Source: Candidatus Velamenicoccus archaeovorus
GTDB lineage: Bacteria; Omnitrophota; Gorgyraeia; Velamenicoccales; Velamenicoccaceae
Direction: 5' to 3'
NCBI RefSeq assembly: GCF_004102945.1
Contig: NZ_CP019384.1
Location: forward strand, 630,001 to 662,000
Length of the DNA stretch: 32,000 bases
Shown one piece after another: positions 691 to 21,348 of the stretch (within the stretch, counting starts at the first letter, position 1; every line of letters starts with the position of its first letter). The notes under the pieces were generated by a model, which did no database searches, was not told where the DNA came from, and worked only from the letters and a program-made list of their open reading frames with translations. Position numbers and translations under genes: made by a program.

Positions 691-1177
691 ACCCATGAAT
701 AAAATAGAAAAATTGATCGACAAGTTTTGTCCCAAGGGGATAGAGTTTAAGGAGTTGGGTGAAGTGTTAGATTATGAGCAGCCCACTAACTATCTTGTGC
801 AATCCACTGAATATGACGATGATTTTGTTACGCCAGTATTAACTGCTGGCCAAAGTTTTATTCTTGGTTATACAGACGAAAATGATGGAATATATAAAGC
901 GAGCAAAGAAAATCCCACTATTATTTTTGATGACTTCACTACATCATTTCATTGGGTTGATTTTGATTTCAAGGTTAAATCTTCGGCGATGAAAATGCTC
1001 CGACCCGAAAAGAGTGCCGATGTTATTTTTAAATTTATTTACTATGCGATGAAATGTATTGAGTACTCACCTCAAGACCATGCGCGTCATTGGATTTCTA
1101 AGTATTCAAAATTCAAAATCCCCATCCCACCTCTGCCGGTGCAAGAAGAAATCGTCCGCATTCTGGATAAGTTTACA

Positions 1178-1225
1178 GAACTAGAAGCAGAACTAGAAGC
1201 AGAACTAGAAGCAGAACTAGAAGCA
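1178..1225 (+). repeat. Four perfect tandem copies of the 12-bp unit GAACTAGAAGCA, encoding (ELEA)4 in the HsdS central spacer
   Basis: Counted directly in the sequence. The repeat is in frame with hsdS. Confidence 0.95.
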
Positions 1226-1276
1226 AGGAAGAAGCAGTATGAATATTATCGTACTGAACTGCTGACGTTCAACGAA

Positions 1277-1325
<49 letters not shown>

Positions 1326-1863
1326 GTAAGATGGGTAACACTAGGAGAAATAGGGAAGATTGTTAGGGGGACTGCCATTACAGCAAAGGAAGCGACAGGT
1401 GGAAAAATTCCGGTAGTTGCCAATGCGCCTAAAGCCATTTATTTTCATGGTAAAAGTAACAGAAGTGGAGAAACAATCGTTATTGCTAGATCTGGAGCTT
1501 ATGCTGGGTTAGTCAGTTTCTGGGATGAACCGATCTTCCTCACTGATGCATTCAGCGTTCATGTGGAGTCTACTTTGCTCAAAACCAAATTTGTTTATTA
1601 CTTATTGAAGCAAAAACAGGAAACTATCCACTTCATGAAGAAAGGTAGTGGAGTGCCGCATGTTCGAGCAAAAGAGTTTGAATCTTACCGTATCCCCATT
1701 CCTCCTGTCGCCGAACAAGAGCGCATTGTTACCATTCTCGATAAATTTGACACACTGGTAAATGATATTTCTGTCGGCTTACCGGCGGAAGTGAACGCCC
1801 GGCGCAAACAATACGAATACTACCGGGACAAGTTGCTTACTTTTAGTCCATTGGAAGAAGAAT

Positions 1864-4800
1864 ATGCCAAGCAATAAAAAATACAATTTAGTAGCGGAAA
1901 ACCCGCAAAGCACCGTGGTGGCGGAATATACACCTCAGTATCGTACCGCAAAGGCGTACCAGAGCGAGGCGGAACTGGAGCGCGCTTTTATTGAGCAGTT
2001 AGGATCACAGGCGTATGAGTATTTGTCCATTGCCTCTGAAACTGATCTCGTGCTTAATCTGCGCAAACAACTGGAAAAGCTGAATGATTTCACCTTTTCC
2101 GATGCGGAATGGGAGGCGTTTTTTGCCGAAGAGATCGCCAACCCTAATCAAAGTATTGCTGAAAAAACAGCCACTATTCAGGAAGACTACATTAAAAATC
2201 TAAAATGTGATGACGGAACGGTTAAGAATATCTATCTGTTCCGCAAAGACAAGATCCACGAAAACAATTTACAGGTGATCAATCAATACACCACCGAAGA
2301 AGGCCAAAGATCCAACCGCTATGATGTAACGGTGCTGGTCAATGGCTTACCGCTTGTGCATATTGAGCTTAAACGGCGCGGGGTGGCAATTCAGGAAGCG
2401 TTCAATCAGATTAACCGTTACCAACGTGAGAGTTTTTGGGCTGGCTCCGGGCTCTTTGAATATGTACAAGTTTTTGTCATCTCCAATGGCACGCATACCA
2501 AATACTACAGCAATACTACGCGCTCCGAACATATCAAAGAATCTATCGAAGGATCTGTTAAGAAAGGGAAACGCTCGAGCAACAGCTTTGAGTTTACCAG
2601 CTGGTGGGCAGACGCGACTAACAGACCCATTACAGATCTCGTAGATTTTGCCAAAACTTTTTTTGCCAAACACGTGCTTCTCAATATCCTTACCCGCTAC
2701 TGTGTGTTCACCGCTGAAAAACAGCTTTTAGTGATGCGGCCTTATCAGATCGTGGCGACAGAGAGGATATTGAGCAAAATCGAAGTCAGCACCAACTATA
2801 AAAAACTCGGCACTGTGGAGGCTGGCGGATATATCTGGCACACCACCGGATCGGGTAAAACCTTGACCAGTTTCAAGACAGCCCAACTGGTGAGCAAGCT
2901 GCCCTATGTTGACAAAGTGCTTTTTGTCGTTGACCGCAAAGACCTTGATTATCAAACCATGCGTGAATACGACAAGTTTGAAAAAGGCGCGGCTAACAGC
3001 AATACCAGTACGGCGATATTAAAACGTCAGCTTGAAGACTCAAATGCGCGTATTATTATCACCACAATTCAAAAACTTGACCGGTTTATAGGGCACAACA
3101 AGGGACACACAATTTTTAACGGCCACATAGTGCTGATTTTTGATGAATGCCACCGCTCGCAGTTTGGCGAGATGCACGCTGAGATTACTAAAGCGTTTAA
3201 AAGCTATCACCTTTTCGGTTTTACCGGCACGCCGATCTTTGCCGTGAATGCTTCTGCCGGTGGGCGTCCCGATTTTAAAACTACCGCGCAGGCTTTTGGC
3301 GATAAATTGCACACCTACACTATTGTGGACGCTATTGCCGACAGAAATGTTTTGCCGTTTAAGGTGGATTATGTTTCTACCGTGCGTGAAGCCGAGGATA
3401 TTGAAGATAAAAAAGTGCGTGACATCGACCGGGAAGCAGTGCTTGCCGCGCCGGAACGGCTGGCAAATATTGTGAAATATATCCGCGACCATTTTGACCA
3501 GAAAACCAAGCGAAACAGTTTTTACAAACTCAAAGACCGGAGACTATCGGGGTTCAACTCCATTTTTGCCGTTTCTTCCATCGACGCGGCCAAGAAATAC
3601 TACGCGGAATTTCAACGACAGTTAAAAGACGCGCCGAGTGATAAAAAACTGAAAATAGCGCTTATTTACAGCTTTGGCGTAAACGAGGAAGAAATTGACG
3701 GCGTGATAGATGAAAACTCCGAAGACACCAGCGGGCTGGACAAAAGCTCAAGAGATTTTCTTGAGAACGCCATCAAAGACTACAACGTCATGTTTGGGAC
3801 ATCCTACGACACTTCTTCTGATAAATTTCAGAATTACTATAAAGATGTCAGCGAACGCGTAAAGAATCGAGAAGTGGATATTCTGCTGGTGGTCAATATG
3901 TTTTTGACCGGCTTTGACGCAACTACGCTCAATACCTTATGGGTGGATAAGAATCTGCGCTTGCATGGTTTATTGCAGGCATATTCTCGCACAAATCGTA
4001 TTTTAAACACCGTCAAGACGTTCGGAAACATTGTTTGCTTTCGCAATTTGGAAAAAGCGACCAATGAATCCATTGCCCTCTTTGGCGATAAGGAAGCCAG
4101 CGGGATTGTGCTGTTAAAATCGTATGACGAATACTACAACGGCTACAAAGATGGCGACAAGGAAGTCCGTGGATATAAAAGTCTGGTTGAAGAGCTTTTA
4201 ACAAAATTTCCGGTTGGCGAGCGCATTGTTGGAGAACAAAATCAAAAGAGTTTTATCCGGCTGTATAGCGCGATTTTACGGGTGAGAAATATCTTGATTA
4301 CTTTTGACGAATTTAGCGGCAATGAAATTCTAACTGAGCGGGACCTTCAGGATTATCACAGCGTCTACATTGACCTTTACAACGAGTTTCGCAAGGCAGA
4401 CGAAGGCGAAAAGGAAAATATCAACGATGACATCGTGTTTGAAATGGAGTTAATTAAGCAAATTGAGATCAATATTGATTATATTTTGGGGCTTGTCAAA
4501 AAGTACCATGAAGATCATATCAAGAACCGTGAACTGCTTATCGACATTAACAAGGCAATCGACTCAAGCGTTGAACTGCGCAACAAAAAAGATCTCATCA
4601 ACCAGTTTATCGCTTCGCTTGATGCTCATTCGGTCGTGGATGAAGACTGGCAGAAGTATGTGGAGAAGAAAAAGATTGAGGAGCTGGAAGATATTATTAA
4701 ACATGAAAACCTTGATCACGACGAAACCTATAAATTTGTGCGAAATGCATTTCGTAACGGCAGTGTCGCAACCACAGGCACTGCTCTGGCAAAAGTTTTA

Positions 4801-4917
4801 CCGCCTGTATCGCGCTTTTCTCCCGGAGGAGAGCGTTCCAAGAAGCGCGAGAGCGTTCTGGATAAATTGACACGATTCTTTGAGCGATTTTTTGATATTT
4901 CTGATGGGAAGATTTAA
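1864..4917 (+). CDS. hsdR: Type I restriction enzyme R subunit (helicase/endonuclease)
   Basis: 1017-aa ORF overlapping the hsdS end. It has a Walker A motif (TTGSGKT) and a DEAD-box-like motif (FDECHRSQ). Its size and its position after hsdM and hsdS are typical. Confidence 0.95.
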
Positions 4918-5217: not shown

Positions 5218-5589
5218 ATGAGTAACGAATTTGGGAAGAAGATAAAGCAGGAACGGCTTCATCTTGATTTAAGCCTTCGTAAAGTTTGCGAAGCCGTATT
5301 TAGTGACAAGAAAAAACCGATATCTGTATCATATCTTAATGATATCGAGCAGGGGTATCGGAATCCCCCCGATAGTAAAATAATTGTTCAACTAGCCAAA
5401 GTCCTAAAACTTGAGCCTCAAGATCTTTTGAATTTGGCGGGGAAGGTTCACCCTATTATTGAGGATGTAAGCAAGAAAACAGAAGTTGGCGTTCTCTTTC
5501 GGAAGATAGCTGAGCATATTGAACGCGATCCTGGATTCGCTGCAAAAATCCAGGAACAGCTTGATAAAAATAAGGATGATCAAAAATGA
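5218..5589 (+). CDS. XRE-family helix-turn-helix transcriptional regulator (CapH-like position)
   Basis: 123 aa. The N-terminal segment KIKQERLHLDLSLRKVCEAV...SYLNDIEQG looks like an HTH_XRE domain. Its stop overlaps the start of the downstream metallopeptidase gene (ATGA). Confidence 0.75.
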   Translation: MSNEFGKKIKQERLHLDLSLRKVCEAVFSDKKKPISVSYLNDIEQGYRNPPDSKIIVQLAKVLKLEPQDLLNLAGKVHPIIEDVSKKTEVGVLFRKIAEHIERDPGFAAKIQEQLDKNKDDQK

Positions 5590-6305
5590 TGCGATGGATT
5601 GACGATGATCAAAGTGTCTATGGCCGCCGGCTCATCGCTACAGGCATAGATATAGATGAGGCTATGGAAATAAAATATCTGGAATTTTTTAATGGTAAAT
5701 GTGACATTGATCATCCAGCCCTTGACATCGAGCGCTTTATAGATGAAAATTTGAGAAAAGATAACATTGAATTTGAACCGGAGGCGACTGAGTTACAACA
5801 TAATGCTTTGGGGGCTACAAAGTTTAACCCGGATGGATCTCGATTGATTCAAGTTAATGCCAAACTTTATCGGCAAAGGAATTCAACAGCGCTAAAAGGC
5901 CGTTTCAGGTTTACGTGCGCTCATGAAGTGTTCCATGCCTTATTTCATGATAAGCTTTTTCGTAGCGAGGGTCATTTGAAATGTTTCGAACATCATATTC
6001 AGGAAGATATGGTTGAACCAGAGAAAAAATCGAATGATTTCATCGAGTGGCAAGCTAACCGAGGAGCGGCGGCGTTGTTAATGCCAGGATCAATTTTTAA
6101 AGAAAACGTTAAGCGAATCCGCGCCATATCTCACGATCACGAATCGTTAGTGCGAGATTTAGCGTCTCGTTTTGATGTGTCTAGGCAATCGGCACTTATT
6201 CGGCTGCAGACGTTTCGATCCGTGGCTGTGCGCGAAGATGATTTCAATCTGGAAAATGACGGCATTGATAGTTACCAAGATGCCCGGAAAAGAACCTGGA
6301 ATTAG
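5586..6305 (+). CDS. ImmA/IrrE-family zinc metallopeptidase (CapP-like position)
   Basis: 239 aa with an HExxH motif (CAHEVFHALFH). It is translationally coupled to the XRE gene, which is the classic XRE plus ImmA/IrrE pairing. Confidence 0.8.
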   Translation: MMRWIDDDQSVYGRRLIATGIDIDEAMEIKYLEFFNGKCDIDHPALDIERFIDENLRKDNIEFEPEATELQHNALGATKFNPDGSRLIQVNAKLYRQRNSTALKGRFRFTCAHEVFHALFHDKLFRSEGHLKCFEHHIQEDMVEPEKKSNDFIEWQANRGAAALLMPGSIFKENVKRIRAISHDHESLVRDLASRFDVSRQSALIRLQTFRSVAVREDDFNLENDGIDSYQDARKRTWN

Positions 6306-6324
6306 GAAAATTTTTTTGATTAAA

Positions 6325-6345
6325 TTTTACGCAGTTAGCGTAAAA
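6325..6345. promoter_or_regulatory. Perfect 8-5-8 inverted repeat TTTTACGC-AGTTA-GCGTAAAA (candidate operator or RNA hairpin)
   Basis: Seen directly in the intergenic region between the ImmA-like gene and the DUF2188/Ubl operon. Confidence 0.35.
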
Positions 6346-6395
6346 GAACAATAACCTTAAACTAAGGAGACTTGTTAACATAAGAGGAGGAGTAA

Positions 6396-6629
6396 ATGGC
6401 AGAACGAAAACGAGTATGGGTTTCACCAGACGGTAAAGGCGGATGGGATGTTAAAACGCAAGGTGCCCAGCGGGCCGCCGGTAATTACGAGGACAAAACA
6501 GACGCATTATCAAAAGCAAAGGAGGTCGCGAAGAATGCACCCTTAGGACAGGTGGTTGTTCAAGGGCGAGATGGAAAAATCCAAACCGAATATACATATG
6601 GCAAAGACCCAGAGCGCTTCCCAGGTTAA
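6396..6629 (+). CDS. Small DUF2188-like protein
   Basis: 77 aa behind a strong RBS (AAGAGGAGGAG). The pattern WxV...GAQRAAGNYEDKTDALSKAKEVA...GRDGKIQTEYTYGKDP matches my memory of DUF2188. Confidence 0.6.
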   Translation: MAERKRVWVSPDGKGGWDVKTQGAQRAAGNYEDKTDALSKAKEVAKNAPLGQVVVQGRDGKIQTEYTYGKDPERFPG

Positions 6630-6659
6630 TACACAGGGCAACTGAAAGGAGAAAGAGTC

Positions 6660-6923
6660 ATGGAAAATCAAGGACAGGGACACAATAAGCAAGTCACGAT
6701 TATAGTAAATGCTCGCCCAGAAACGGTGGCGAAAGACGATATATCTTATAGTGAGGTTGTCGCTTTGGCCTTTCCGAATCCGCCAACCGGCGATAATGTT
6801 TCGTTTGTTGTTATGTACCGTAGGGGCCACGGCGATAAGACGCAAGGGACTCTTGTCCAAGGCCAAACAGTCAAGGTAAAGGAGGGGATGATATTTGATG
6901 TCTCACCAAATAATAAGTCGTAG
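6660..6923 (+). CDS. Multiubiquitin-type ubiquitin-like (beta-grasp) protein
   Basis: 87 aa with RBS GAAAGGAGAAAG. VTIIVNARPETVAKDDISYSEVVALAF...VSFVVMYRRG...GTLVQGQTVKVKEGMIFDV resembles the prokaryotic Multiubiquitin domain. It sits directly upstream of, and overlaps, the E2-E1 gene. Confidence 0.6.
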   Translation: MENQGQGHNKQVTIIVNARPETVAKDDISYSEVVALAFPNPPTGDNVSFVVMYRRGHGDKTQGTLVQGQTVKVKEGMIFDVSPNNKS

Positions 6924-8082
6924 TCCAGACCTTAAGCGACTTCGCGATGAAGGCTATGATATAGAGGTCAAGTCAGGATATCTTTTTATCAAGGATGTTC
7001 CATACGTCGATTCAGATAAGAAGATAGCGCGCGGCACCTTGGTATCAAAATTAACTGTAGCTGGGGACATGGCTGTGCCTCCTGATACCCATGTCGCTTA
7101 TTTTATTGGGGGGTCTCCGTGTGATGCGAATGGATCTCCTCTACAAAAAATTATCAACTCGAGCCAAAAACATAAGCTGGATAATGTTATCGAAGTTGAT
7201 CATACGTTTTCTGCGAAGCCTATGCCAGATGGAAAATATAAGGATAATTGTGATAAGGTAAAAAAATACATTGCTATGATTTCCGGTCACGCTCAGGCGG
7301 TAGATCCAAACGTAACGGCGGCAACCTTCCCAGCTTTGCCGACAACAGGAGAGGATAAATCATTCTTTAATTATATCGATAGCGCTTCTAGCAGAGCCCA
7401 GATCGGGGCGGCTACGAGCAAGTTGGAGATCGGCGGCATTGCAATCGTAGGAGTCGGTGGGACTGGTTCGTATATTTTGGATTTGGTGTCGAAAACTCCG
7501 GTAAGTGAGATTCACATTTTCGACAATGATAAGTTCCTGAATCACAACGCATTTAGAACGCCGGGTGCTCCTTCTATAGATGAATTGCGAAGGCAGCCCA
7601 AAAAGGTATTTTATTTGAGGGACATTTACTCAAGGATGCATCGGCATATTATTTCGCATGACGTTTATGTGGATGCGTCAAACGTAGATCTTCTTAAGCC
7701 AATGAAGTTCGTATTCATTTGCCTTGATAAAGGGGGCATAAAAAAGTGTATCGTTGAAAAGTTAGAAGAATGGGGTACTCCATTTATTGACGTCGGCATG
7801 GGCCTTCAGCTCGTTGACGAATCATTGACTGGTGTGCTTACCGTAACTGCCAGTACAATTGAGCAGCGCAAGCACATTAAAGATAGGATTTCTTTTTCAG
7901 AAGATAACGAAGGGAATGAGTATTCCCAAAACATACAAATCGCCGATTTGAACGCTCTTAATGCGGCTCTCGCTGTCGTCAAATGGAAGAAGATGTGTGG
8001 ATTTTATAAGGATCTTGAAAAAGAGTTCTTCTGTGCATATTCAGTGAACGGTAATACTCTAGTTAATGAAGACAAATCATGA
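6895..8082 (+). CDS. E2-like N-terminal domain fused to a ThiF/E1-type adenylyltransferase
   Basis: 395 aa. The C-terminal half has the E1 nucleotide-binding motif IAIVGVGGTGSYILDLV...IHIFDNDKFLNHNAFR. About 170 aa at the N-terminus are not E1. The multiubiquitin / ThiF / DUF6527 gene neighbourhood is a recognised trio. Confidence 0.75.
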   Translation: MMSHQIISRSPDLKRLRDEGYDIEVKSGYLFIKDVPYVDSDKKIARGTLVSKLTVAGDMAVPPDTHVAYFIGGSPCDANGSPLQKIINSSQKHKLDNVIEVDHTFSAKPMPDGKYKDNCDKVKKYIAMISGHAQAVDPNVTAATFPALPTTGEDKSFFNYIDSASSRAQIGAATSKLEIGGIAIVGVGGTGSYILDLVSKTPVSEIHIFDNDKFLNHNAFRTPGAPSIDELRRQPKKVFYLRDIYSRMHRHIISHDVYVDASNVDLLKPMKFVFICLDKGGIKKCIVEKLEEWGTPFIDVGMGLQLVDESLTGVLTVTASTIEQRKHIKDRISFSEDNEGNEYSQNIQIADLNALNAALAVVKWKKMCGFYKDLEKEFFCAYSVNGNTLVNEDKS

Positions 8083-8525
8083 AACGAACCAAAATATTAA
8101 CATATCGATTCCTTGAGTATATCCCTCGCGATATAGAGGAAGGGGTGATTTACATTTCAATGACATTTTCGACGGCGATTCATAAGTGCTGTTGTGGATG
8201 TGGTCAAGAGGTTGTAACTCCATTTGGCCGGACAGATTGGCAGTTGACTTTTGATGGCGAATCAATTTCACTGGATCCATCGATTGGAAATTGGAGTTTT
8301 GATTGTAAGTCACACTACTGGATAAGACATAATAAAATTATATGGGCACCTCGTTGGTCTAAGAAAAAAATTGATGCTAATAGGGCATACGATAAGCGGT
8401 TGAAGGATAGATATTTTATGGCTGTACAAGAGAAAGAGAATAGAAGTGATCGGAAGATAAGGCTTGCGGATTGGCTTGCTGAAAAGAATATATTGAAGCG
8501 GTTGAAAAACAATAGCTTAAGGTAA
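8079..8525 (+). CDS. DUF6527-like small protein (CxCGCG motif; candidate peptidase of the Ubl system)
   Basis: 148 aa, translationally coupled to the E1 gene (ATGA overlap). It contains HKCCCGCGQEV and the conserved-looking SIGNWSF.C.SHYWI. The family assignment is from memory. Confidence 0.5.
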   Translation: MKRTKILTYRFLEYIPRDIEEGVIYISMTFSTAIHKCCCGCGQEVVTPFGRTDWQLTFDGESISLDPSIGNWSFDCKSHYWIRHNKIIWAPRWSKKKIDANRAYDKRLKDRYFMAVQEKENRSDRKIRLADWLAEKNILKRLKNNSLR

Positions 8526-8647
8526 ATGTTTTAACAACAGAGATTCCTTCGCTCAGAATTTTTCGTTTTCGAAGTATCGAAAGATTTTGCTTAGAGAATA
8601 TTTCTTTCTTGATCTTGTAGTTTTTTTCTTGAGGCCGCAATAAGTAA

Positions 8648-8932
8648 GTCCTCCTTTCTTTTTCTTCGCCAAAAATACTCAATGCTTTAATTTCGTCAAC
8701 AAAATTCCGGAAATAATTCGTCTCCGTTCTTGTGGTCTGCCTCAAGAGCGGCTTCGCCCCTTCGGGGAGTCCTCAATTTTTTCCTCAGAATCCAAGAAGG
8801 TTCGTTCTCTCCCTCGTCGTTCTCTCTCCTTCGGCCAATCCTTGTTTTATTGACTAAACCGGCGCTTGTGGTCTGCCTCAAACGCCTTTAAAGGCCTTGA
8901 GTTCTCCTTTTTGGCGTAAAAGAAAGGAGGAC
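8648..8932 (+). ncRNA. Structured module A (285 nt): candidate cis-regulatory leader RNA or ssDNA-folding element upstream of the SpoVG-like gene
   Basis: The 15-nt GTCCTCCTTTCTTTT (8648-8662) is the exact reverse complement of AAAAGAAAGGAGGAC (8918-8932), which contains the SD. Further pairings are 8668-8675/8908-8915, 8677-8682/8897-8902 and 8691-8704/8845-8858. Internal hairpins at 8724-8751 and 8861-8886 both have the loop TGGTCTGCCT. Confidence 0.5.
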
Positions 8933-8935
8933 CAC

Positions 8936-9241
8936 ATGCGTCCAAAAGCAAAAAAACAGCAACAAAATCAGGAAAGGAAGGAGGTGAGCAAAATGTTCGA
9001 AGTCTCAAGGATCCATCGTATCGAAGGAAACGATACTCTGAAGGCCTTTGTGGACATCAAAGTCGCGGATTGCGTTTTGATCAAAGGCCTGAGAGTCATG
9101 GCGACCAAGGATGACACCTTGTTTGTCGCCATGCCGTCTCAGAAGGCGGAGGATGGCAAATACTATCCTACCGTCAAGCCTCTTTCCAAAGAGGCGAATC
9201 AAGAGCTGCAGGACGCAGTTCTTGCTGCCTATAACGAATAG
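8936..9241 (+). CDS. SpoVG-family protein (alternative start at 8993)
   Basis: MFEVSRIHRIEGNDTLKAFVDIKVADCVLIKGLRVMATKDDTLFVAMPSQKAEDGKYYPTVKPLSKEANQELQDAVLAAY aligns by eye with SpoVG. Both the ATG at 8936 (AAGGAGG upstream) and the ATG at 8993 (GGAAGGAGGTGA upstream) have strong RBSs. Confidence 0.75.
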   Translation: MRPKAKKQQQNQERKEVSKMFEVSRIHRIEGNDTLKAFVDIKVADCVLIKGLRVMATKDDTLFVAMPSQKAEDGKYYPTVKPLSKEANQELQDAVLAAYNE

Positions 9242-9290
9242 GCAGTAAAAAAAGCTGCGCTATCGGCTAGACGGGCAAAAATAAAAAATC

Positions 9291-9316
9291 GATCCCCGGC
9301 CAGGGGATCTTTTTTT
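9291..9316 (+). terminator. Intrinsic terminator after the SpoVG-like gene
   Basis: Stem GATCCCC / GGGGATC with loop GGCCA, followed by T7. An A-run precedes the stem. Confidence 0.7.
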
Positions 9317-9413
9317 GTGCCTGGCGCGGCTATCACCGTTTGCCGATCAGCCTCAACACCTTCCTTTCTGTCTCTTTTGTTGTTTTTTTTCTGATTTTTC
9401 AAGCGCCGGCTTC

Positions 9414-9701
9414 GTCTCCTTTCTGTTTGTTTTCGCTTTTCTAACCTTAAGCCCTGATTTTCGTCAATAAAATCACGAAAATAATTCGTCTCCGCTTTTG
9501 TGGTTTGCCTCAAAAGCGGCTTCGCCCCTTCGGGGAGTCCTCAATTTTTTTCGTGACCCAGGAAGACTCTCTCACTTCATCCGTCGTTCGTTCGTCTTCG
9601 GGCATACCTGTTTTTTTTGACCAAAACCGCCGGTTGTGGTCTGCCTCAACCGGCTTCAGGAGCTTAGGTCAAGACTTTTTCAGCGAAAACAGAAAGGAGA
9701 C
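9414..9701 (+). ncRNA. Structured module B (288 nt), paralogue of module A, upstream of the 94-aa ORF
   Basis: GTCTCCTTTCTGTTT (9414-9428) is the exact reverse complement of AAACAGAAAGGAGAC (9687-9701), which contains the SD. Hairpins at 9492-9519 (loop TGGTTTGCCT) and 9629-9654 (loop TGGTCTGCCT). A block of about 90 nt (9458-9548) is nearly identical to 8691-8779. Confidence 0.5.
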
Positions 9702-9707
9702 CAAGCC

Positions 9708-9992
9708 ATGAAAAACATGAACAAAAAAGAAAACGAGCAAAAATTCGACGAAGGGGTGTTGAGGGCTGACGGCTGCATGATGAGGCATAACCAGTCGCGT
9801 CAGGCAGAATTCCGTACGCAGGAAGAGGATTTTCCTGAGCATTCTTTCGGTAAGTCCGCGTACTGGGAAGAAAGAAGACTGCTTAACCGCGTCCATACGC
9901 TCAAGGCCATGGGTTTCAAGATCAGGCCTGAACAGACGCTCGAAGAGTTCGTCCAGGCGCATGAGGACGCGTTCACCGAGGACGTCCTATGA
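9708..9992 (+). CDS. Hypothetical protein (94 aa)
   Basis: The ATG at 9708 follows GAAAGGAGA. It is the first gene after module B and is coupled to the next ORF (ATGA overlap). No recognisable domain. Confidence 0.55.
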   Translation: MKNMNKKENEQKFDEGVLRADGCMMRHNQSRQAEFRTQEEDFPEHSFGKSAYWEERRLLNRVHTLKAMGFKIRPEQTLEEFVQAHEDAFTEDVL

Positions 9993-10171
9993 AGGTATCG
10001 GAGTTTCCCGAAAGCTTGAGGAAGATCATCTTGTCCAGCGTGGATGAGATGAATTTAGAGCAAGAAGTGACAATGGCGCAAGTGAGTATTTCCTTTCATG
10101 TGGGCCAGGAGATCCACGTTGAAGACTGGGAATACAAGGCAGGCGGCAGAGAAGGAGGAGTCAGATGTTGA
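9989..10171 (+). CDS. Hypothetical small protein (60 aa)
   Basis: Its start and stop overlap the neighbouring genes in an operon-like arrangement. No recognisable motif. Confidence 0.4.
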   Translation: MKVSEFPESLRKIILSSVDEMNLEQEVTMAQVSISFHVGQEIHVEDWEYKAGGREGGVRC

Positions 10172-10506
10172 CGGAAAGCGGGTTACGGCAATTCACAGGC
10201 ACGACGCAATGGTTCAGGCACTTGAGCGGCTATCTTTATACGGACGGCGTGCAATATGTGGCTGAACAAGGCGGCGCCTACTGGCTTTTGGACAAAATCC
10301 TGTTCATAACCCGGGCAAAGGCGAGGCTGCAGGAGTTCGGCGTCTGGAAACTGTCCGTGCGCGAAGACCATACAGCTCAGCTTGTCTGCGAAGACGGCAA
10401 CTATCACAAGCTCTACGATGAAAAGATCGACTGGACGGATTTTCCGCTCAAGAAGATCGAGCTGTGGTTTGAAAACGGCGTCCTGATACTGCCGAGCGAA
10501 CACTAA
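10165..10506 (+). CDS. DUF6876-like protein (a family seen on conjugative elements)
   Basis: 113 aa. FTGTTQWFRH...YLYTDGVQYVAEQGGAYWLLDKI matches my memory of DUF6876. Confidence 0.5.
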   Translation: MLTESGLRQFTGTTQWFRHLSGYLYTDGVQYVAEQGGAYWLLDKILFITRAKARLQEFGVWKLSVREDHTAQLVCEDGNYHKLYDEKIDWTDFPLKKIELWFENGVLILPSEH

Positions 10507-10529
10507 ATCAAAGGGAGGAGGTGAATGCT

Positions 10530-10760
10530 ATGCAATTAAACGATCTAAATGGGAAAACCACCATCAAGGTCGCAGGAGAGGAGGTCAGCGTCAATGCTTC
10601 TGATTCTGTCAAGGACACCTTAAAAAGGCTCCTTGAAGAGAAGGGCATTGATTCCTTCACGATCCTGGTTGACGGCGCTGAGGTGGCCTCAACGAGTGAT
10701 CTGCCTGAAACCTTCGCGGATCACGAAATCGAAGTGCAAAGATACGTCAAGGCAGGCTAA
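10530..10760 (+). CDS. Small ubiquitin-like beta-grasp protein ending in ...VKAG (PRTRC protein C / Prok_Ub-like)
   Basis: 76 aa from the ATG at 10530 (GGGAGGAGG RBS; the track starts at GTG 10521). It has a C-terminal glycine. Its size and position directly upstream of the E2-like, E1 and JAB genes fit a Ubl. Confidence 0.6.
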   Translation: MQLNDLNGKTTIKVAGEEVSVNASDSVKDTLKRLLEEKGIDSFTILVDGAEVASTSDLPETFADHEIEVQRYVKAG

Positions 10761-10777
10761 AGAAAGGAGAAAAACGC

Positions 10778-10814
10778 GGGAAAGAGGGGAGAGGTTCCCC
10801 TCTTTCCCTATTTT
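10778..10814 (+). terminator. Strong hairpin plus T-tract between the Ubl and E2-like genes (intra-operon terminator or attenuator)
   Basis: GGGAAAGAGGGGA (10778-10790) pairs perfectly with TCCCCTCTTTCCC (10796-10808) across the loop GAGGT. TATTTT follows. Confidence 0.6.
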
Positions 10815-10824
10815 AGAGGTCAAA

Positions 10825-11427
10825 ATGATTGATGAGAAGCTAATCCACAACGCAAGGCCGGCGTCCAAGATCGTAGAAAGTATTGACGAATCCTGGCGCC
10901 AATTTGTCGAGGACTTGAAAGAACAGACGTTCAAGATTCCCTTTAAGGGAAACTACAGGTGTTGTGTTAAAGATGGCTTTTTCCACGTTGAAGCCTACGT
11001 GGGCCTTCTTGTGATCGACAAGCTCTACGATGGCCACAATACCTATCTGCTCAAGACCCCTATTAAGCATGAGCCTTTTACGCTCTACGGCGAGTATGAC
11101 CAGACAGGCGACTTTCGCGATTTTGTTTCGGATCCTGAAATCGGCTGCCACTATCTAGCCATGAGCGATATGGACGCCGGCCGCAAGATCTGCACAGGAG
11201 ATATCCAGATCAACAATGCGAGCCTGAATTCGCTTGAAGCGCTCAAGGCCATGGCGCTTGAAGTCATCAAGTCTTTCAGGCTCATTAACCTGACGTCCTT
11301 GGGCACCGTGATATTGCCGGAGGAGCATTCTGCTCTCAGAGATGTCTTATCCGATAAGTCCAAGGACACGGACACAAAGACAAAGAGCCTCCTGGACGCC
11401 GGGTTAATTGAACCTCTATTAACATAG
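10825..11427 (+). CDS. E2-like (UBC-fold) protein candidate (PRTRC protein B-like)
   Basis: 200 aa from the ATG at 10825; the track ORF 10633 start overlaps the Ubl gene and the hairpin. GRKICTGDIQ resembles the E2 active-site G-x-ICLDIL context. It lies between the Ubl and E1 genes. Confidence 0.5.
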   Translation: MIDEKLIHNARPASKIVESIDESWRQFVEDLKEQTFKIPFKGNYRCCVKDGFFHVEAYVGLLVIDKLYDGHNTYLLKTPIKHEPFTLYGEYDQTGDFRDFVSDPEIGCHYLAMSDMDAGRKICTGDIQINNASLNSLEALKAMALEVIKSFRLINLTSLGTVILPEEHSALRDVLSDKSKDTDTKTKSLLDAGLIEPLLT

Positions 11428-11438
11428 GAGAAGAATCA

Positions 11439-12383
11439 ATGCCTCAAGGAGCCATTTATTCGCGTCAGGAGTTGATCGACCAATTGGACATACCGCAAAT
11501 CGCCACAGTCGTAGGATGCGGCGGGACAGGGTTCTGGACCGCGGTGTTTCTGGCGATGAGCGGGGTTGAAGAATTAGTCCTGATCGACCGCGATATCATC
11601 GAGATATCCAATCTGAACAGGCTGCTTTTGGAAGAGCGGCATGTGGGAAAGAAAAAGATCGAGGTTTTAAAAGAGGTCCTTTCAGATATCAGGAAATCTA
11701 CGCGGATCGAAATCCACGATATGCGCATCGAAAAATCTCCGGACTGTCAGGTTCTGCGCGGCAAGATATTCTGTTGCACGGACAATTTGAAAAGCCAACA
11801 GCTCATCTGCGCTTACTGTAAAAAGAACGATTTAATCTACCAGAGAATAGGCTATGACGGCACGATTTTGAACGTTTCCAGGGCTTTTCCCTTGTCTTTT
11901 GAAGAGACGGAAGAACGGCAGGGTTATACGTTTACACCTTCCTGGGTTGTTCCTGCGGTATTGGCAGCAGCGGCCGGCGTTGCCTCGGTCCTGTATAAGC
12001 ACCTGTCCTTGATGGAAGATTTGGGCAAGCTGCACATACAGCATTCTTCCTTTGTTCCTGAGAAGATTCTGGATGAAGCCAAGCAGGAGCATGAAGATTA
12101 CATCACGGATCACATTGATGATTATCTTCCAAGCGGTTACGGCTATTGCGACGACTGCACCCACTGCGATGACTGCAACAGGGTGGATCCGGAAGATCAT
12201 TGTTCAGATTGCGATAAGGAATATACCCAGGCCGATCTTGACGAAAAGATCGCCGAAGAAAAAGAAGAATGGCTGAAAGAAACGATCGAGGAGATCAAAT
12301 CAGGCAAGGTCTCCAGCGAAGAGTTAAAAGAAGCCTTAAAGCAATGGCTAAAAGCCGCCAAAAGGAGGTCTAAAAATGAATAA
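11439..12383 (+). CDS. ThiF/MoeB/E1-family adenylyltransferase with a Cys/Asp-rich C-terminal tail
   Basis: VVGCGGTGFWTAVFLAMSGVEELVLIDRDIIEISNLNRLLL is the E1 Rossmann/adenylation signature. The C-terminal CDDCTHCDDC...HCSDC cluster is a likely zinc site. Confidence 0.85.
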   Translation: MPQGAIYSRQELIDQLDIPQIATVVGCGGTGFWTAVFLAMSGVEELVLIDRDIIEISNLNRLLLEERHVGKKKIEVLKEVLSDIRKSTRIEIHDMRIEKSPDCQVLRGKIFCCTDNLKSQQLICAYCKKNDLIYQRIGYDGTILNVSRAFPLSFEETEERQGYTFTPSWVVPAVLAAAAGVASVLYKHLSLMEDLGKLHIQHSSFVPEKILDEAKQEHEDYITDHIDDYLPSGYGYCDDCTHCDDCNRVDPEDHCSDCDKEYTQADLDEKIAEEKEEWLKETIEEIKSGKVSSEELKEALKQWLKAAKRRSKNE

Positions 12384-13080
12384 TATCCAAAACAACGTCA
12401 GCAATATCTTGAATGTCAGTATCAAGAATTATACGGATTGCGGCTGGTGCTTGGATAAGGCCAACGAAGAGATCTTGAATATTCCCTGGTCCATCTGGAG
12501 CCAGTGGCTGTTTATGTCCCAAAGGATGGGCAAAAAAGAGTGGGGAGCGATATTTTGGGTCAAGGATAACACCGTCACCGGCTTTAAGATTCCCAAGCAG
12601 GAGGTCAATGCGGTTGAGTGCGCTTTCAAGGAAGAATTGGGCGGGGACGGAATTATCCATTCCCACCACGACATGGGCGCTTTTCATTCAAGCCAGGATG
12701 ACGCCCACGCGCGCAATCTTTATCGGTATTCAATAGTCCTTTCTAATTCCGATGGAAGCATCTGTACAAAAAAACTTAAGCTGCCCTGCGGTTCTTTCGG
12801 TTACGTCCAGGTGCGGCTCGGCATCATTGATCTGCCGAAAATTGATTTGGCAAAAATCGGCGAGAAAAAGAGAGAATTGATCTCGGAGCAACCCGAAGAG
12901 GAATTATTCCGGCAGGCTCGATATGACGAGTTGCAAATGCAGTGCGAAGAATGCGTAAGGTCTGATTGCCATGGTTGCGAGATTTTTCTTGCTATGCAGG
13001 AAATAGAAGCCGGAATGTTCGGGACCGGATTTGATGGATTCCAGAGACAGACACGGGAAGAGCCGAAATGTGGTCGATAG
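12376..13080 (+). CDS. JAB/MPN (JAMM) metalloisopeptidase (PRTRC protein A / BilD-like)
   Basis: HSHHDMGAFHSSQDD fits the JAMM motif HxHx7Sx2D exactly. RBS AAAGGAGG. The start overlaps the E1 stop. There is a C-terminal CxxCx4CxxC cluster. Confidence 0.85.
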   Translation: MNNIQNNVSNILNVSIKNYTDCGWCLDKANEEILNIPWSIWSQWLFMSQRMGKKEWGAIFWVKDNTVTGFKIPKQEVNAVECAFKEELGGDGIIHSHHDMGAFHSSQDDAHARNLYRYSIVLSNSDGSICTKKLKLPCGSFGYVQVRLGIIDLPKIDLAKIGEKKRELISEQPEEELFRQARYDELQMQCEECVRSDCHGCEIFLAMQEIEAGMFGTGFDGFQRQTREEPKCGR

Positions 13081-13338: not shown

Positions 13339-14124
13339 ATGGAGAAAGTTTTCATTTTCGATGAGGACATCAAAACACGGTCTTTCCTTTATGAGCTGAT
13401 TTCGGAACTGGGCTGGAGCGTGCACACGGTCGCCTCCGGCTCCGTGATCCTTGATTTGCTGAAGAACGAGCGCCCCGCCTTGATCATCCTCGCCGAGCAG
13501 GAGGGGGAGTTCTGCGGTTTTTCCCTTGTCAAGAAGATCCGCACATTCGATAAAGACGTAAAGATCATCGTTTTATTCAATTCCGCCTCCGGCCCCGGCC
13601 GGGATCCGGGTTTAGTCTCAAGAGAAGCAGATATCAGCACCTATCTTCCCAAGGATTTCCAGGATCCGCGCATCATTAAAGAAATTATCTCCGTCCTCAA
13701 TCAACAAATCTATATCAAGCCTGAAGGCATGACGATCCGCGGGAATATCCTCGTTGTCGATGATGAAATAGAAGGCAGGGAGACGGTGGCAGGTTTCTTG
13801 CGCAGGAGGGGTTTTGGCGCGGATACCGCCTTAAGCGGCGAAGAATGCGTAGAAATGATCAAACAAAAACCATATGATCTTGTTCTTCTTGATATTTCAT
13901 TGGCGGGCATGGACGGCCTGTTGACCCTCAAGCGGATCAGGGAGGTCAATGCGAACGTCAAGGTGATCATGAGCACGGGCCTCGCCAATCCTGACCTCGT
14001 TGAGCAGGCGAAGTCTCTTGGGGCGGATGATTATCTGGTGAAGCCTTTTAATTTCGGCAGCCTGGAAGCTTCTTTGATTGCTTTGCTGATCAGCAAAAAA
14101 AGGCAAAGCCAAGATGGTGTATGA
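13339..14124 (+). CDS. Stand-alone response regulator with two receiver domains (the first looks like a pseudo-receiver)
   Basis: The second domain is ILVVDDE...DLVLLDISLAGMDG...KVIMSTG...DYLVKPF. The first domain has ALIILAEQEG where the phospho-acceptor Asp is expected. Confidence 0.85.
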   Translation: MEKVFIFDEDIKTRSFLYELISELGWSVHTVASGSVILDLLKNERPALIILAEQEGEFCGFSLVKKIRTFDKDVKIIVLFNSASGPGRDPGLVSREADISTYLPKDFQDPRIIKEIISVLNQQIYIKPEGMTIRGNILVVDDEIEGRETVAGFLRRRGFGADTALSGEECVEMIKQKPYDLVLLDISLAGMDGLLTLKRIREVNANVKVIMSTGLANPDLVEQAKSLGADDYLVKPFNFGSLEASLIALLISKKRQSQDGV

Positions 14125-14177
14125 CATAACCCACTACGAGTATTCCAGTATTCCAGAGCCGAGCTCTTCCAGTATTC

Positions 14178-14212
14178 CAGAGCCGAGCTCTGGAGAGCTC
14201 GGCTCTGTTTAA
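14178..14212 (+). terminator. Intrinsic terminator after the response-regulator gene
   Basis: CAGAGCCGAGCTC-TGGA-GAGCTCGGCTCTG forms a perfect 13-bp stem, followed by TTTAA. Confidence 0.65.
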
Positions 14213-14319: not shown

Positions 14320-14388
14320 TGGTATATAATCTGATATAATCTCATATAGTTGAAATACGAGTTTAACTTGAGAATCACGGGAGTCCTT

Positions 14389-15441
14389 ATGCCAAATGCC
14401 TTTAACCAAAGGTTGGAGAATCTCCCACCGGAAATCTGGTCAAAAATCACCAAGATAGAAGAATTAAAAGGCCAATGGATTATAGGCGCGCGCTTAAGCC
14501 CTCAGGTCCTAGGGCGCCTCAAAAGATCGGTTCTGGTTACCTCAACCGGTGCTTCCACGCGTATCGAAGGATCCAGGCTTTCTGATGAAGACATAGAAAA
14601 GCTTATGCGCGGGATCTCAATACAGAAATTTGCCGACCGCGACAAGCAGGAAGTAAAAGGATACTATGAATTGCTCCAGAATGTCTTTGACTCTTGGAAG
14701 CACATCCGTTTTTCCGAAAATACAACCAAGCATTTCCATAAAGAGCTCTTAAAATACGTCCAAAAAGACAGACTTCATCGGGGTGAGTATAAAAAAACCG
14801 AGAATAGAGTCCATATGGTTGATACGCAAGGGAAGTCTGTCGCCGTTCTTTTTGATACCACGCCGGCATACCTTACGCCCAAAGAAATGCAGGAGTTAGT
14901 CGAGGCGGCGCAAAATGCCTTTAAAGAAAATAAATATCCTCCTTTGTTGATTATAGGGAATTTTTTGGTTGAGTTCTTAAAAATTCATCCGTTCCAAGAC
15001 GGCAACGGGCGCATTTCGCGCATCCTTACGAATCTGCTTTTATTGCAGGCCGGTTATCAGTATATGCCTTATGTCTCGCACGAAAAGTTAATAGAAGACA
15101 ACAAAGCCGACTACTATCTGGCGTTAAGAAAAAGCCAGAAAACCTTAAAGACCAAGCCCAATATCGTCCCTTGGCTAGATTTCTTCCTTTCGCTGGTTTA
15201 TAAGCAGTCTCAAATGGCAGTTGAACTATTGTCTAAGGAAAACATTGAAAAATTGCTGTCGCCTAAACAAATCGCTGTTTGGGAATTTTTACAGACGGTT
15301 GCTGAAGCATCGCCGAAAGATATCTCGAAGAACGCCAAAGTTGCCCAGCCCACGGTAGCCCAGGCCTTGGATAAGCTAATTCGCCTTAAAAAAGTTGAGC
15401 GCATTGGACTCGGGAGGAGCACAAGATACCGAAAGATTTAG
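14389..15441 (+). CDS. Fic/DOC-family protein with a C-terminal winged-helix domain
   Basis: Contains the Fic motif HPFQDGNGRISR. The ATG at 14389 (MPNAFNQ...) is preferred over the track's TTG at 14350. Confidence 0.9.
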   Translation: MPNAFNQRLENLPPEIWSKITKIEELKGQWIIGARLSPQVLGRLKRSVLVTSTGASTRIEGSRLSDEDIEKLMRGISIQKFADRDKQEVKGYYELLQNVFDSWKHIRFSENTTKHFHKELLKYVQKDRLHRGEYKKTENRVHMVDTQGKSVAVLFDTTPAYLTPKEMQELVEAAQNAFKENKYPPLLIIGNFLVEFLKIHPFQDGNGRISRILTNLLLLQAGYQYMPYVSHEKLIEDNKADYYLALRKSQKTLKTKPNIVPWLDFFLSLVYKQSQMAVELLSKENIEKLLSPKQIAVWEFLQTVAEASPKDISKNAKVAQPTVAQALDKLIRLKKVERIGLGRSTRYRKI

Positions 15442-15969: not shown

Positions 15970-18585
<2,616 letters not shown>

Positions 18586-18610
18586 ACCGGATGTAAAAAA
18601 AGGGAGAATA

Positions 18611-18976
18611 ATGGTCGACAATGCGAAGAATTCCAAGGCTTATGAATCGGCATTTGATACGGCGATGGAAGTATTTTGGCTGACTAAAGAATATCCCAAG
18701 GAAGAGTTGTGTTCGTTGGCGGATCAGCTCAGAACGGCTTCCAGGTCTGTGGCGGTCAGCATAAGAGAGGGTCTCGTAAAAAAGCCGCATTACAGGGATA
18801 TTTTTGTAAGGCATGTGATCGATGCTTTGGGTTTTTGTGAAGAGACAAAAACGTGGCTTGATTTTTCCTTCGAGTGCAGATATCTGGGGCGGGATAAATA
18901 CGGCGAGTTGTCCAGGAAATACGACGAGATAAGGATCATGCTGTATCAATCCCTCGGCAGGAATCCTCGGCTTTAA
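18611..18976 (+). CDS. Four-helix-bundle protein (23S rRNA intervening-sequence protein family)
   Basis: From the ATG at 18611: AYESAFDTAMEVFWLTKEYPKEELCSLADQLRTASRSVAVSIREG... This is the typical family pattern (fPkeE..L..QlrRA..Si..NIaEG). Confidence 0.75.
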   Translation: MVDNAKNSKAYESAFDTAMEVFWLTKEYPKEELCSLADQLRTASRSVAVSIREGLVKKPHYRDIFVRHVIDALGFCEETKTWLDFSFECRYLGRDKYGELSRKYDEIRIMLYQSLGRNPRL

Positions 18977-19114
18977 AGCCGAGGAGAAATGCGGTATTGC
19001 CTCGGGAGGGAACCCCCAGGGGATTCCACTTGGTCAAAAATTGGAAGAAATGGTGAAGGCGTGATCCGGCAGGGAGCTCCGGAGATACGAAAAACAACTC
19101 AAGGAACGAAAGAC

Positions 19115-20716: not shown

Positions 20717-20820
20717 TTTTTTGTTCTTTTACACTTTGGGGTTTTTGGGGGAATTAGTGGGTAAGCCGGTGAACAGGTTAGCCGGTGAATCGGTGAAATG
20801 AATAAACCAGAAAAGAAGGT

Positions 20821-21240: not shown

Positions 21241-21348
21241 CTTTTGTACAAGGTCGAGGCAAAAAGAGTTCGCCTGCCGCGCGGGAAAGCGGAACGCTTG
21301 CGGCGCGGCGAGGGTTGTAAAAAGGTGCGAGGTCGTAAAGCGTTGTCC

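Follow-up and report, generated by a model that had tools for sequence, protein, structure and literature searches.

A candidate ubiquitin-like conjugation cassette with a putative RNA leader on mobile elements of Omnitrophota

A cassette of four genes from Candidatus Velamenicoccus archaeovorus (contig NZ_CP019384.1) codes for a candidate ubiquitin-like modifier (Ubl) of 76 aa, a 200-aa protein with an E2-like Cys motif (E2L), a ThiF-type E1, and a JAMM peptidase. It was analysed within a stretch of 32,000 nt, here called the window, and all coordinates given below are window positions. As judged by sequence comparison, the cassette represents a previously undescribed family of bacterial Ubl-E1-JAB systems, in which the E2 is unverified and which is accompanied by a candidate new RNA leader. 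The arrangement goes far beyond what chance would produce, and the order Ubl-E2L-E1-JAB recurs in every related locus whose contig suffices. We consider it reasonably likely (probability about 0.6) that the cassette is a self-contained module for reversible Ubl conjugation and deconjugation which is carried by integrative and conjugative elements of Omnitrophota and serves the mobile element. In the literature searched, we found neither a published description of these genes as one system nor an account of DUF6876, DUF2958, or any Omnitrophota Ubl system.

Gene layout and transcription units

The 200-aa protein encoded at 10825-11427 is identical to BU251_02670 of Ca. Velamenicoccus archaeovorus (Omnitrophota, 1.97-Mb genome), and the eight plus-strand genes at 8936-13080 correspond to BU251_02645 to BU251_02680. 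Their public names are SpoVG family, hypothetical, DUF6876, hypothetical (UniRef: ThiS), hypothetical, ThiF family adenylyltransferase, and Mov34/MPN/PAD-1. The genes and the associated elements are, in order:

8641-8935, plus strand: leader RNA copy 1; its anti-Shine-Dalgarno (anti-SD) stretch at 8652-8675 pairs with the SpoVG ribosome-binding site at 8908-8931
8936-9241, plus strand: SpoVG-family protein, 101 aa, with a basic N-terminal extension (BU251_02645; PF04026, E = 3e-20)
9291-9309, then a T7 run to 9316, plus strand: intrinsic-terminator-like hairpin after SpoVG (sequence read and hairpin search)
9400-9707, plus strand: leader RNA copy 2; its anti-SD stretch at 9408-9428 pairs with the orf94 ribosome-binding site at 9687-9707
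9708-9992, plus strand: orf94, conserved protein (BU251_02650), the commonest gene behind the leader
9989-10171, plus strand: orf60, a small open reading frame (ORF) overlapping both neighbours, found only in close relatives
10165-10506, plus strand: DUF6876 protein (BU251_02660; PF21781, E = 1e-42)
10530-10760, plus strand: Ubl candidate, 76 aa, ending in RYVKAG (BU251_02665; C-terminal Gly, position before E2L-E1-JAB)
10778-10808, plus strand: intercistronic purine/pyrimidine-rich hairpin of 14 bp between the Ubl and E2L genes (hairpin search)
10825-11427, plus strand: E2L, 200 aa (BU251_02670; GRKICTGD at residues 119-126; motif ICTG[D/E])
11439-12383, plus strand: E1-like adenylating enzyme, 314 aa (BU251_02675; PF00899, E = 2e-24)
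12376-13080, plus strand: JAB/JAMM metallopeptidase, 234 aa, with CxxC pairs (BU251_02680; PF14464, 28.4 bits, gathering score 25)

An earlier first-pass annotation of this DNA had described eight co-directional, tightly spaced genes forming one operon. All eight ORFs were indeed found on the plus strand, with overlapping junctions (orf94/orf60 by 4 nt, orf60/DUF6876 by 7 nt, E1/JAB by 8 nt) or close ones (gaps of 23 nt between DUF6876 and Ubl, 64 nt between Ubl and E2L, and 11 nt between E2L and E1). The gene set thus stands, but the single operon does not: because a terminator follows SpoVG and a second leader copy precedes orf94, the region consists of two transcription units.

Conservation of the cassette

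Related loci were fetched via E2L or Ubl, which gave 39 loci, and gene order was read where the contig reached far enough. The order Ubl-E2L-E1-JAB is constant in all 39 loci and in further metagenome loci. Even two remote E2L relatives (E about 1e-11 to 1e-14) keep their partners, namely a protein of 82-95 aa, a ThiF protein, and a protein with the JAMM motif; the small upstream protein in these remote loci ends in ...KPGKD or ...VTG. When mean identity to the window proteins is computed over the same 23 loci, Ubl is the best conserved component (72%), followed by E1 (60%), JAB (59%), and E2L (50%).

The usual layout is leader-SpoVG-Ubl-E2L-E1-JAB, followed by leader-orf94-...-DUF6876. In the Velamenicoccus lineage, the orf94-orf60-DUF6876 block has, by this comparison, moved between SpoVG and Ubl.

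The ubiquitin-like modifier

As previously annotated, the 76-aa protein ends in VKAG (C-terminus ...RYVKAG). Its homologs form at least 139 clusters with 66-92% identity, and G76 is invariant in the alignment, so that the protein has the C-terminal Gly expected of beta-grasp modifiers. Among 120 homologs, the C-terminus is ...KAG in 65 and ...[AP]G plus one residue in 52 (Cys in 47 of these), with three others. The Gly is thus either the last residue or, in nearly half of the homologs, followed by one or two more, of which Cys is the commonest; this reads as the pattern of Ubls that are put to use either as they are or once trimmed.

A Pfam scan of 34 members gave sub-threshold matches to the beta-grasp families DUF348 (22), RBD (14), Fer2_4 (5), ubiquitin (2), and Rad60-SLD (1); the same scan also gave unrelated families, for example DUF373 and an SH3 domain. 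The automatic UniRef name is ThiS, and a crude propensity profile would allow a beta-beta-alpha-beta-beta-beta layout. Gene position, terminal Gly, weak beta-grasp matches, and the ThiS name support the view that the 76-aa protein behaves like a Ubl, for which a beta-grasp fold is inferred.

A homolog of 110 aa (P0016) has an internal duplication of the helix-strand segment. Longer gene calls of 113 aa (P0251, P0259, and P0262) occur in the 90% cluster to which the window Ubl itself belongs.

The E1 and the JAMM peptidase

The 314-aa E1 scores 86.4 bits against PF00899 (cut-off 28.1) and has a single ThiF domain at residues 23-131. The motif GCGGTG...DxDxxxxSNLNR reported for it by the first-pass annotation is present as G26CGGTG31 and D50xD52xxxxS57NLNR61, and it is conserved: across 21-22 unique homologs, G26xGGTG31, D50, D52, S57NLNR61, K73, and C113TDN116 are invariant, as are G162-Y163, S168, and S183 within residues 147-183. 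The tail carries two conserved CxxC pairs (C237/C246 and C255/C258), followed by a poorly conserved charged helix. Profile comparison to solved structures gave PaaA, UBA5, MccB, TcdA, ThiF, and MoeB as nearest relatives (E = 2e-13 to 5e-11), with alignments that span residues 7-139 only. In an NCBIfam scan (E <= 0.1), 23 families were matched, with ThiF and MoeB best and all well below their cut-offs.

In the peptidase, the previously noted JAMM motif HxHx7Sx2D proved to be perfect. The zinc site E...HxH-x7-S-x2-D is complete, and none of its residues E55, H95, H97, S105, and D108 varies among 22 unique homologs. Most homologs have about 270 aa; the 234-aa window protein is devoid of part of their Cys-rich C-terminal region. 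A profile search of PDB sequences with JAB gave noise only. From their complete catalytic motifs, E1 and JAMM peptidase look active.

The E2-like Cys protein

The sequence GRKICTGD had led to the 200-aa protein being called E2-like. The motif as such is well founded, with C123 being invariant in 62 diverse homologs along with P39 and H109; homology to E2s was not detected. H109 is found in G-x-H-[YF], 14 residues upstream of C123, and is not accompanied by Pro-Asn, so that there is no HPN motif. The pattern G-x-x-I-C-x-x-D resembles HPN...G-x-I-C-L-D of E2s. Close homologs of E2L form 11 clusters only, and an exhaustive profile search of 1.84 billion proteins yielded 94 representatives.

An AlphaFold2 model of E2L reached a predicted local distance difference test score of 95.4 with the 62-sequence alignment, as against 47.6 with 11 sequences. 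It starts with a helix (residues 15-34), which is followed by five antiparallel strands, the C123 loop, and three helices (137-151, 166-176, and 182-191). Two of the strands are unusually long (17-19 residues), and H109 is located on the last strand. This order of elements matches that of textbook E2s. His and Cys are separated by 14 residues, as are Cys and the next helix; the counterparts in UbcH5 are about 10 and about 14. Among the top 50 PDB hits of the model in Foldseek, eight are E2/UEV chains, all non-significant: E2-25K, TSG101-UEV, Ube2T, and Ubc15 gave E = 0.6-3.1 at TM-scores of 0.2-0.3 (best E2: E = 0.6, TM 0.20). As a check for a ubiquitin-conjugating (UBC) fold, the model of 10825-11427 thus returned an E2-congruent element order but no significant fold match.

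E2L as an E2 is therefore plausible but unproven, resting on the motif and the order of secondary-structure elements. The model would fit a UBC fold that has been strongly elaborated, or else a Cys/His protein that is unrelated to E2s and occupies their position. Because its linkage to E1 is unbroken, E2L is expected to act on activated Ubl.

A fusion of Ubl and E2 was ruled out, the N-terminal extensions of some E2L homologs being unrelated SH3/KOW-like or Cys-rich segments. Such extensions, 66-158 aa long, were seen in the remote relatives P0153, P0156, P0157, P0162, P0171, P0180, and P0189. Two remote loci (L040 and L042) contain many small unannotated ORFs and are possibly phage-like, with ThiF and JAMM genes still adjoining.

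A candidate cis-regulatory leader and an intercistronic hairpin

The two leader copies of the window form a direct repeat with a spacing of 768 nt. In each, the structure is closed by a pyrimidine tract pairing with the ribosome-binding site, which lies 230-260 nt further downstream; in copy 2, the helix of anti-SD and ribosome-binding site covers 21 nt at 95% complementarity. Copy 1 encloses two hairpins with the conserved loop UGGUCUGCCU, at 8730-8745 and 8866-8881, and the hairpin loops of copy 2 are at 9498-9513 and 9634-9649. The loop consensus is UGGUYUGCCU, a motif that occurs four times in the window as against 0.02 expected. The leader also carries a CCCC-UUCG-GGGG hairpin and an invariant TTGACA. 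Fold z-scores are -3.9 for copy 1 and -7.0 for copy 2.

An nhmmer search detected 28 leader copies in the first 39 loci, all in sense orientation. In 20 aligned copies, 96.4% of the cells are paired, compared to 50-71% when the partners are slid. Compensatory changes were seen in thirteen pairs, and G.U pairs abound on the sense strand. Since such G.U pairs would be A.C mismatches on the other strand, an RNA leader is favoured. A metagenome scan with an invariant stretch of 23-24 nt added 57 copies, behind which are orf94 homologs (38), SpoVG (10), contig ends (3), and other ORFs (6). In total, there are at least 85 copies (L001-L033 and L043-L095), nearly always before SpoVG or orf94 where this could be assigned. 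No Rfam family was matched at gathering score or at E <= 1. We propose the leader as a candidate new class of cis-regulatory RNA, about 300 nt long, which would hide the ribosome-binding site.

Two other readings of the leader were considered and rejected. A single-stranded-DNA promoter of the Frpo type was suggested by the conserved TTGACA, which is located inside a helix, but there is no -10 box at the right spacing, and the frequent sense-strand G.U pairs speak for RNA; a paper on the plasmid leading region mentions none of these genes. A sigma-54 promoter in the hairpin loop has the wrong spacing.

The hairpin between the Ubl and E2L genes is a separate element. GA-rich/CU-rich hairpins of 10-18 bp were found in all 29 distinct Ubl-E2L spacers, with the structure being kept while the sequence varies. 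It is probably an attenuator or a transcript stabiliser which sets the ratio of Ubl to enzymes.

Associated genes and mobile-element context

The association of the cassette with SpoVG, DUF6876, and the leader modules, already pointed out in the first-pass annotation, is real and is conserved across related loci. SpoVG adjoins the core in most of these. The window protein scores 72.5 bits in Pfam (cut-off 29.6) but only 58 against the NCBIfam equivalog (cut-off 108), and by these scores it appears to be a family member, not the canonical septation regulator. For orf94, homologs with 37-56% identity exist in many related loci, and no Pfam, NCBIfam, or PHROG family was matched. The DUF6876 protein matches PF21781 over its full length (145.3 bits, cut-off 27); it is 72-90% identical across related loci and mostly located downstream of orf94. 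Both genes are within a few kb of the core in many loci, while DUF2958 is found in others. Counterparts of orf60 occur in three loci (L001, L015, and L017; 84-88% identity), and scans of Pfam, NCBIfam, and PHROG gave no family match.

The 20 genome loci are almost all from metagenome-assembled genomes of Omnitrophota. Their neighbours are mobile-element genes: TraU and TraH with a secretin; tyrosine integrases with HerA/DUF87 ATPases; or serine recombinases together with a TrwB-like ATPase, RuvC, and a helix-turn-helix (HTH) protein, the latter in an element about 13 kb long and bounded by housekeeping genes. No recombinase was seen in the window. Among the 72,556 plasmids of PLSDB, there is no relative of Ubl or E2L, and hits of E1 are at Rossmann level only. 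IMG/VR contains no relative of Ubl, and PHROGs gave generic E1 hits only.

Proposed mechanism and alternative explanations

If the cassette is a reversible conjugation module, it might operate as follows. The 76-aa protein would be a beta-grasp modifier with Gly76 as its reactive end, and in homologs with one or two residues beyond the Gly, the JAMM peptidase would first trim these. The ThiF-type E1, probably a homodimer like ThiF, MoeB, and UBA5, would adenylate Gly76 with ATP, as its intact motifs suggest. E2L would then take the Ubl on Cys123, assisted by His109, and pass it to amino groups of targets, which is the weakest step of the scheme; the JAMM peptidase would reverse the tag. The leader would sequester the ribosome-binding site before the SpoVG(-Ubl) unit and before the orf94-DUF6876 unit. 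Given this shared leader, SpoVG, orf94, and DUF6876 appear to be joined with the Ubl system in a single regulon. The hairpin behind the Ubl gene would probably ensure that Ubl transcripts outnumber those for the enzymes, so that Ubl itself stays in excess. The system may act in a conflict between the mobile element and its host or rival elements. Reversible protein tagging, as proposed in the first-pass annotation, is thus backed by the motifs of E1 and JAMM peptidase and by the Ubl-type terminus, but not by a UBC fold of E2L.

Several results weigh against this scheme. For E2L, Foldseek searches gave no significant match in PDB (best E = 0.36) or in BFVD (best E = 0.04), sequence and profile searches of PDB sequences gave no match, and none of the 62 members matches any Pfam (including UQ_con and Prok-E2) or NCBIfam family. 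Its comparison to three canonical E2s by hhalign gave about 1% probability (1.2%), this being a weak test with very shallow reference profiles. The same limits apply to the hhalign comparison of Ubl with ThiS, MoaD, SAMP1, and SAMP2 (1% probability, likewise a weak test), and a profile search of PDB sequences with Ubl gave noise only. In E1, no Cys is conserved across residues 147-183, where the crossover-loop Cys is to be expected by offset from ThiF/UBA5, and an E1~Ubl thioester is doubtful for this reason; nor can it be assumed here, since Bub E1s use a Tyr of the crossover loop. No E3 and no target are evident. Finally, the role of the cassette is ambiguous, as defence genes adjoin it in the window and in several loci.

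These defence genes bear on the foremost alternative, in which the biochemistry is the same but the cassette is cargo for anti-phage defence of the Bil type, with Ubl being put on phage structural proteins so that virion assembly is blocked. The characterised systems with E1, E2, and JAB, namely CBASS Cap2/3 and Bil, act in anti-phage immunity, and Bub is suspected to do so. In the window, a type I restriction-modification (RM) system and a Type II Bub operon under CapH/CapP control adjoin the cassette; in other loci, the neighbours include RM-like, GmrSD, SLFN/AlbA, and HEPN/NTase genes. On the other hand, the cassette makes up about a quarter of the compact element of about 13 kb, it recurs on no fewer than three different backbones, usually close to SpoVG, DUF2958, DUF6876, or orf94, and it has a dedicated RNA leader in common with orf94-DUF6876. 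Because of its large share of the element, the several backbones, and the shared leader, it looks like a backbone regulon rather than exchangeable cargo. Moreover, PADLOC matched no cassette protein, apart from a generic similarity of E1 to CBASS E1-E2 models. We put cargo defence at somewhat less than even odds, and lean slightly towards a backbone function of the cassette in establishment or counter-defence.

A bolder combination of these points is tentative, and we think it unlikely to hold in full. In it, the carrier would be a convergent Cys/His protein with a non-UBC fold that is absent from PDB, and the E1 would work without a catalytic Cys, either by direct hand-over of the adenylate or through Tyr163 or a Ser, as in Bub. 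The leader would be a new class, with its UGGUYUGCCU loops perhaps being read by SpoVG, and the system would help elements to establish or to disarm host immunity, with no part in phage defence.

The main biochemical rival dispenses with the E2. In a SAMPylation-like system resembling SAMP/UbaA/HvJAMM1 or TtuB/TtuC, the small E1 alone would transfer the Ubl, and E2L would be a target, a substrate adaptor, or a second thiol peptidase. This fits with E2L having no detectable relation to E2s, with the lack of a conserved Cys in E1 147-183, and with the E1 being of the small ThiF/MoeB/UBA5 type (sub-threshold hit of 44.7 bits to the SAMP-activating E1 UbaA, cut-off 450). It does not account for the strict co-linearity of E2L with E1 throughout, the most distant members included. 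The invariant Cys sits in a loop between the sheet and a long helix, with a His 14 residues upstream, which is an E2-like geometry, and E2/UEV chains recur among the weak fold hits of E2L. We thus regard E2-independent transfer as quite doubtful, and retain conjugation via E2L as the preferred scheme.

A role as a sulfur carrier of the ThiS/MoaD/CysO/QbsE type is very unlikely. The Ubl would carry a thiocarboxylate made by the E1, the JAMM peptidase would trim the C-terminus of the Ubl or release a Cys adduct, and Cys123 of E2L would relay a persulfide. JAMM, Ubl, and E1 are known as trios from the CysO and QbsE pathways, where Mec+/QbsD performs the release; about 40% of the Ubl homologs end in Gly-Cys, and ThiS and MoeB/ThiF names are returned for Ubl by UniRef and for E1 as best families, respectively. 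However, the NCBIfam scores of E1 for ThiF and MoeB are far below the cut-offs, no rhodanese domain was found in E1, and no genes for ThiG, MoaE, CysM, or similar proteins were seen in annotated neighbourhoods. The cassette is always on mobile elements, beside SpoVG, DUF2958, or DUF6876.

Least probable is maturation as in ribosomally synthesised and post-translationally modified peptides (RiPPs), with an MccB/PaaA-like E1 modifying the C-terminus of a 76-aa precursor and the peptidase releasing the product. In its favour, the best solved-structure matches of E1 include PaaA and MccB, and RiPP loci typically have a precursor-type gene with a hairpin behind it. Against it, the similarity does not extend beyond the shared Rossmann part (residues 21-104), MccB depends on a C-terminal Asn whereas a Gly is found here, no exporter or immunity gene was noted in annotated neighbourhoods, and a protein of 76 aa with 70-90% conservation over its full length and ubiquitin-like helix and strand propensities does not resemble a leader/core peptide.

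Implications

Few bacterial Ubl conjugation systems have been characterised (CBASS Cap2/3, Bil, and Bub), and their known roles are in anti-phage immunity. With the cassette, these systems would gain a family from a phylum of ultra-small, host-dependent bacteria on which little work has been done. The parts of the cassette include a ubiquitin-sized, highly conserved modifier, a minimal E1, and a carrier that sequence and fold searches do not tie to E2s. Should the carrier be a true E2, it would stretch the known limits of the UBC fold; should it be none, Ubl transfer would be convergent. The backbone position in several element types, together with the shared leader, provides a handle on whether Ubl tagging can serve the mobile element rather than the host.

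Other features of the window

A Type II Bub operon with its regulators (5218-8525) is located directly upstream of the cassette. The first-pass annotation had called our cassette the second one, and this operon is the first that its title implied. It consists of:

5218-5589: CapH-like HTH protein
5586-6305: CapP-like M78 peptidase
6396-6629: ORF of 77 aa, DUF2188-like by guess
6660-6923: 87-aa candidate BubA Ubl
6895-8082: DUF6791+ThiF E2-E1 fusion (NF004805, 580 bits)
8079-8525: DUF6527/BubE

Further upstream, the type I RM system occupies 118-4917. Its hsdM ORF is cut at the window start, two ORFs (671-1366 and 1563-1877) make up a split hsdS gene, and hsdR (1864-4917) is intact. At 39-45%, G+C is lower here than in the remainder of the window (up to 60%), which points to an island acquired recently.

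Downstream of the cassette, 13339-14124 encodes a response regulator that has two REC domains but lacks an output domain; its synteny with the cassette is confined to the Velamenicoccus lineage. It is followed by a perfect 24-nt tandem duplication (14143-14190) and by a Fic/DOC protein (14350-15441). A diversity-generating retroelement with two targets extends over 15970-25115 and is accompanied by two 23S-rRNA-IVP-like genes and a DUF2341 protein. In L001 and L002, its locus is likewise found in synteny, downstream of the cassette. The variable repeats (VR1 and VR2) and the template repeat are:

20588-20719: VR1, at the 3' end of an FGE-sulfatase-domain gene (18989-20716)
21349-21480: template repeat, between bAvd (20821-21240) and the reverse transcriptase (21515-22672)
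24356-24487: VR2, at the 3' end of a gene at 22931-24484

Identity to VR1 is 86% for the template repeat and 90% for VR2. Downstream of the second target are a 51-nt exact repeat (25080-25130 and 25773-25823) and GT-rich direct repeats of 62-103 nt with 85-92% identity (24539-24641 and 25708-25810).

Comparison with known systems

Operons with E1, E2, JAB, and Ubl conjugate proteins in Bil, CBASS, and Bub. The first-pass annotation had called the cassette PRTRC/Bil-like, which applies to the parts list but not to membership in either system.

Bil consists of the Ubl BilA, the E2 BilB, the JAB protein BilC, and the E1 BilD (IAD-AAD-CYS), and occurs as Types I and II. In common with it, though as a parts list only, the cassette has separate genes for Ubl, an E2-type Cys protein, JAB, and E1, and no E3; its Ubl is single-domain, as in most Type II systems, and its JAB is available for maturation and deconjugation. 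It differs in gene order (Ubl-E2L-E1-JAB versus A-B-C-D) and in the Ala-Gly end of its Ubl, its hosts being mobile elements of Omnitrophota, its own RNA leader, and its links to SpoVG, orf94, and DUF6876. The E1 is a compact protein unlike that of Bil, as had been anticipated: its 314 aa comprise a single adenylation domain (one ThiF domain) and a 4-Cys motif, in contrast to IAD-AAD-CYS. Sequence comparison of E2L and JAB with solved-structure chains, a set in which the presence of Bil chains is unconfirmed, gave no match. Because the E1 does not have the multi-domain build of Bil and no sequence tie was found, membership in Bil is not supported.

With PRTRC, the cassette shares a mobile-borne small Ubl, a JAB protein, a small single-domain E1, and an E2-like protein of about 200 aa, the size of the corresponding TIGRFAMs family. 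The likeness to PRTRC noted in the first-pass annotation did not extend to the family models. JAB scores 22 bits against PRTRC_A (TIGR03735; cut-off 101.8, E = 9.8e-5), and this in the catalytic segment only; the PRTRC ThiF model, which we take to be TIGR03736, is not among the 23 NCBIfam matches of E1; Ubl and E2L gave no PRTRC hit, with none of 62 E2L members matching PRTRC_B at E <= 1 and no PRTRC_C hit either. No ParB was noted among annotated neighbours. By its own family models, PRTRC membership is thus excluded. Class 6d of Iyer, Burroughs and Aravind (2006), to which PRTRC is probably equivalent, is a mobile-borne set of Ubl, JAB, small E1, and an E2-like protein in which His comes after Cys, whereas here the invariant His is 14 residues before Cys.

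The archaeal SAMP/UbaA/HvJAMM1 and the Thermus TtuB/TtuC systems also combine a small E1 of the ThiF/MoeB type with a single beta-grasp Ubl (a fold predicted for the Ubl of the cassette) ending in Gly and a JAMM isopeptidase. Unlike the cassette, they have no E2-like partner, double as sulfur carriers, and are encoded by chromosomal housekeeping genes.

The Type II Bub operon is a Ubl-conjugation system in the same island. It differs by its E2-E1 fusion (DUF6791+ThiF), its DUF6527 serine protease in place of JAB, and its control by CapH/CapP, and there is no close homology between Bub and the cassette (BubCD versus E1 only E = 2.6e-4). In Bub E1s, a conserved Tyr in the crossover loop, not a Cys, carries the Ubl, which is a possible precedent for the invariant G162-Y163 found here.

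Compared to canonical UBC/E2 proteins, E2L is devoid of the HPN motif and has two very long beta-strands. The order of elements in its model is the same as theirs, with an N-terminal helix, an antiparallel beta-meander, a His that ends the sheet, a Cys loop (in E2L 14 residues further on), a long helix, and two more helices.

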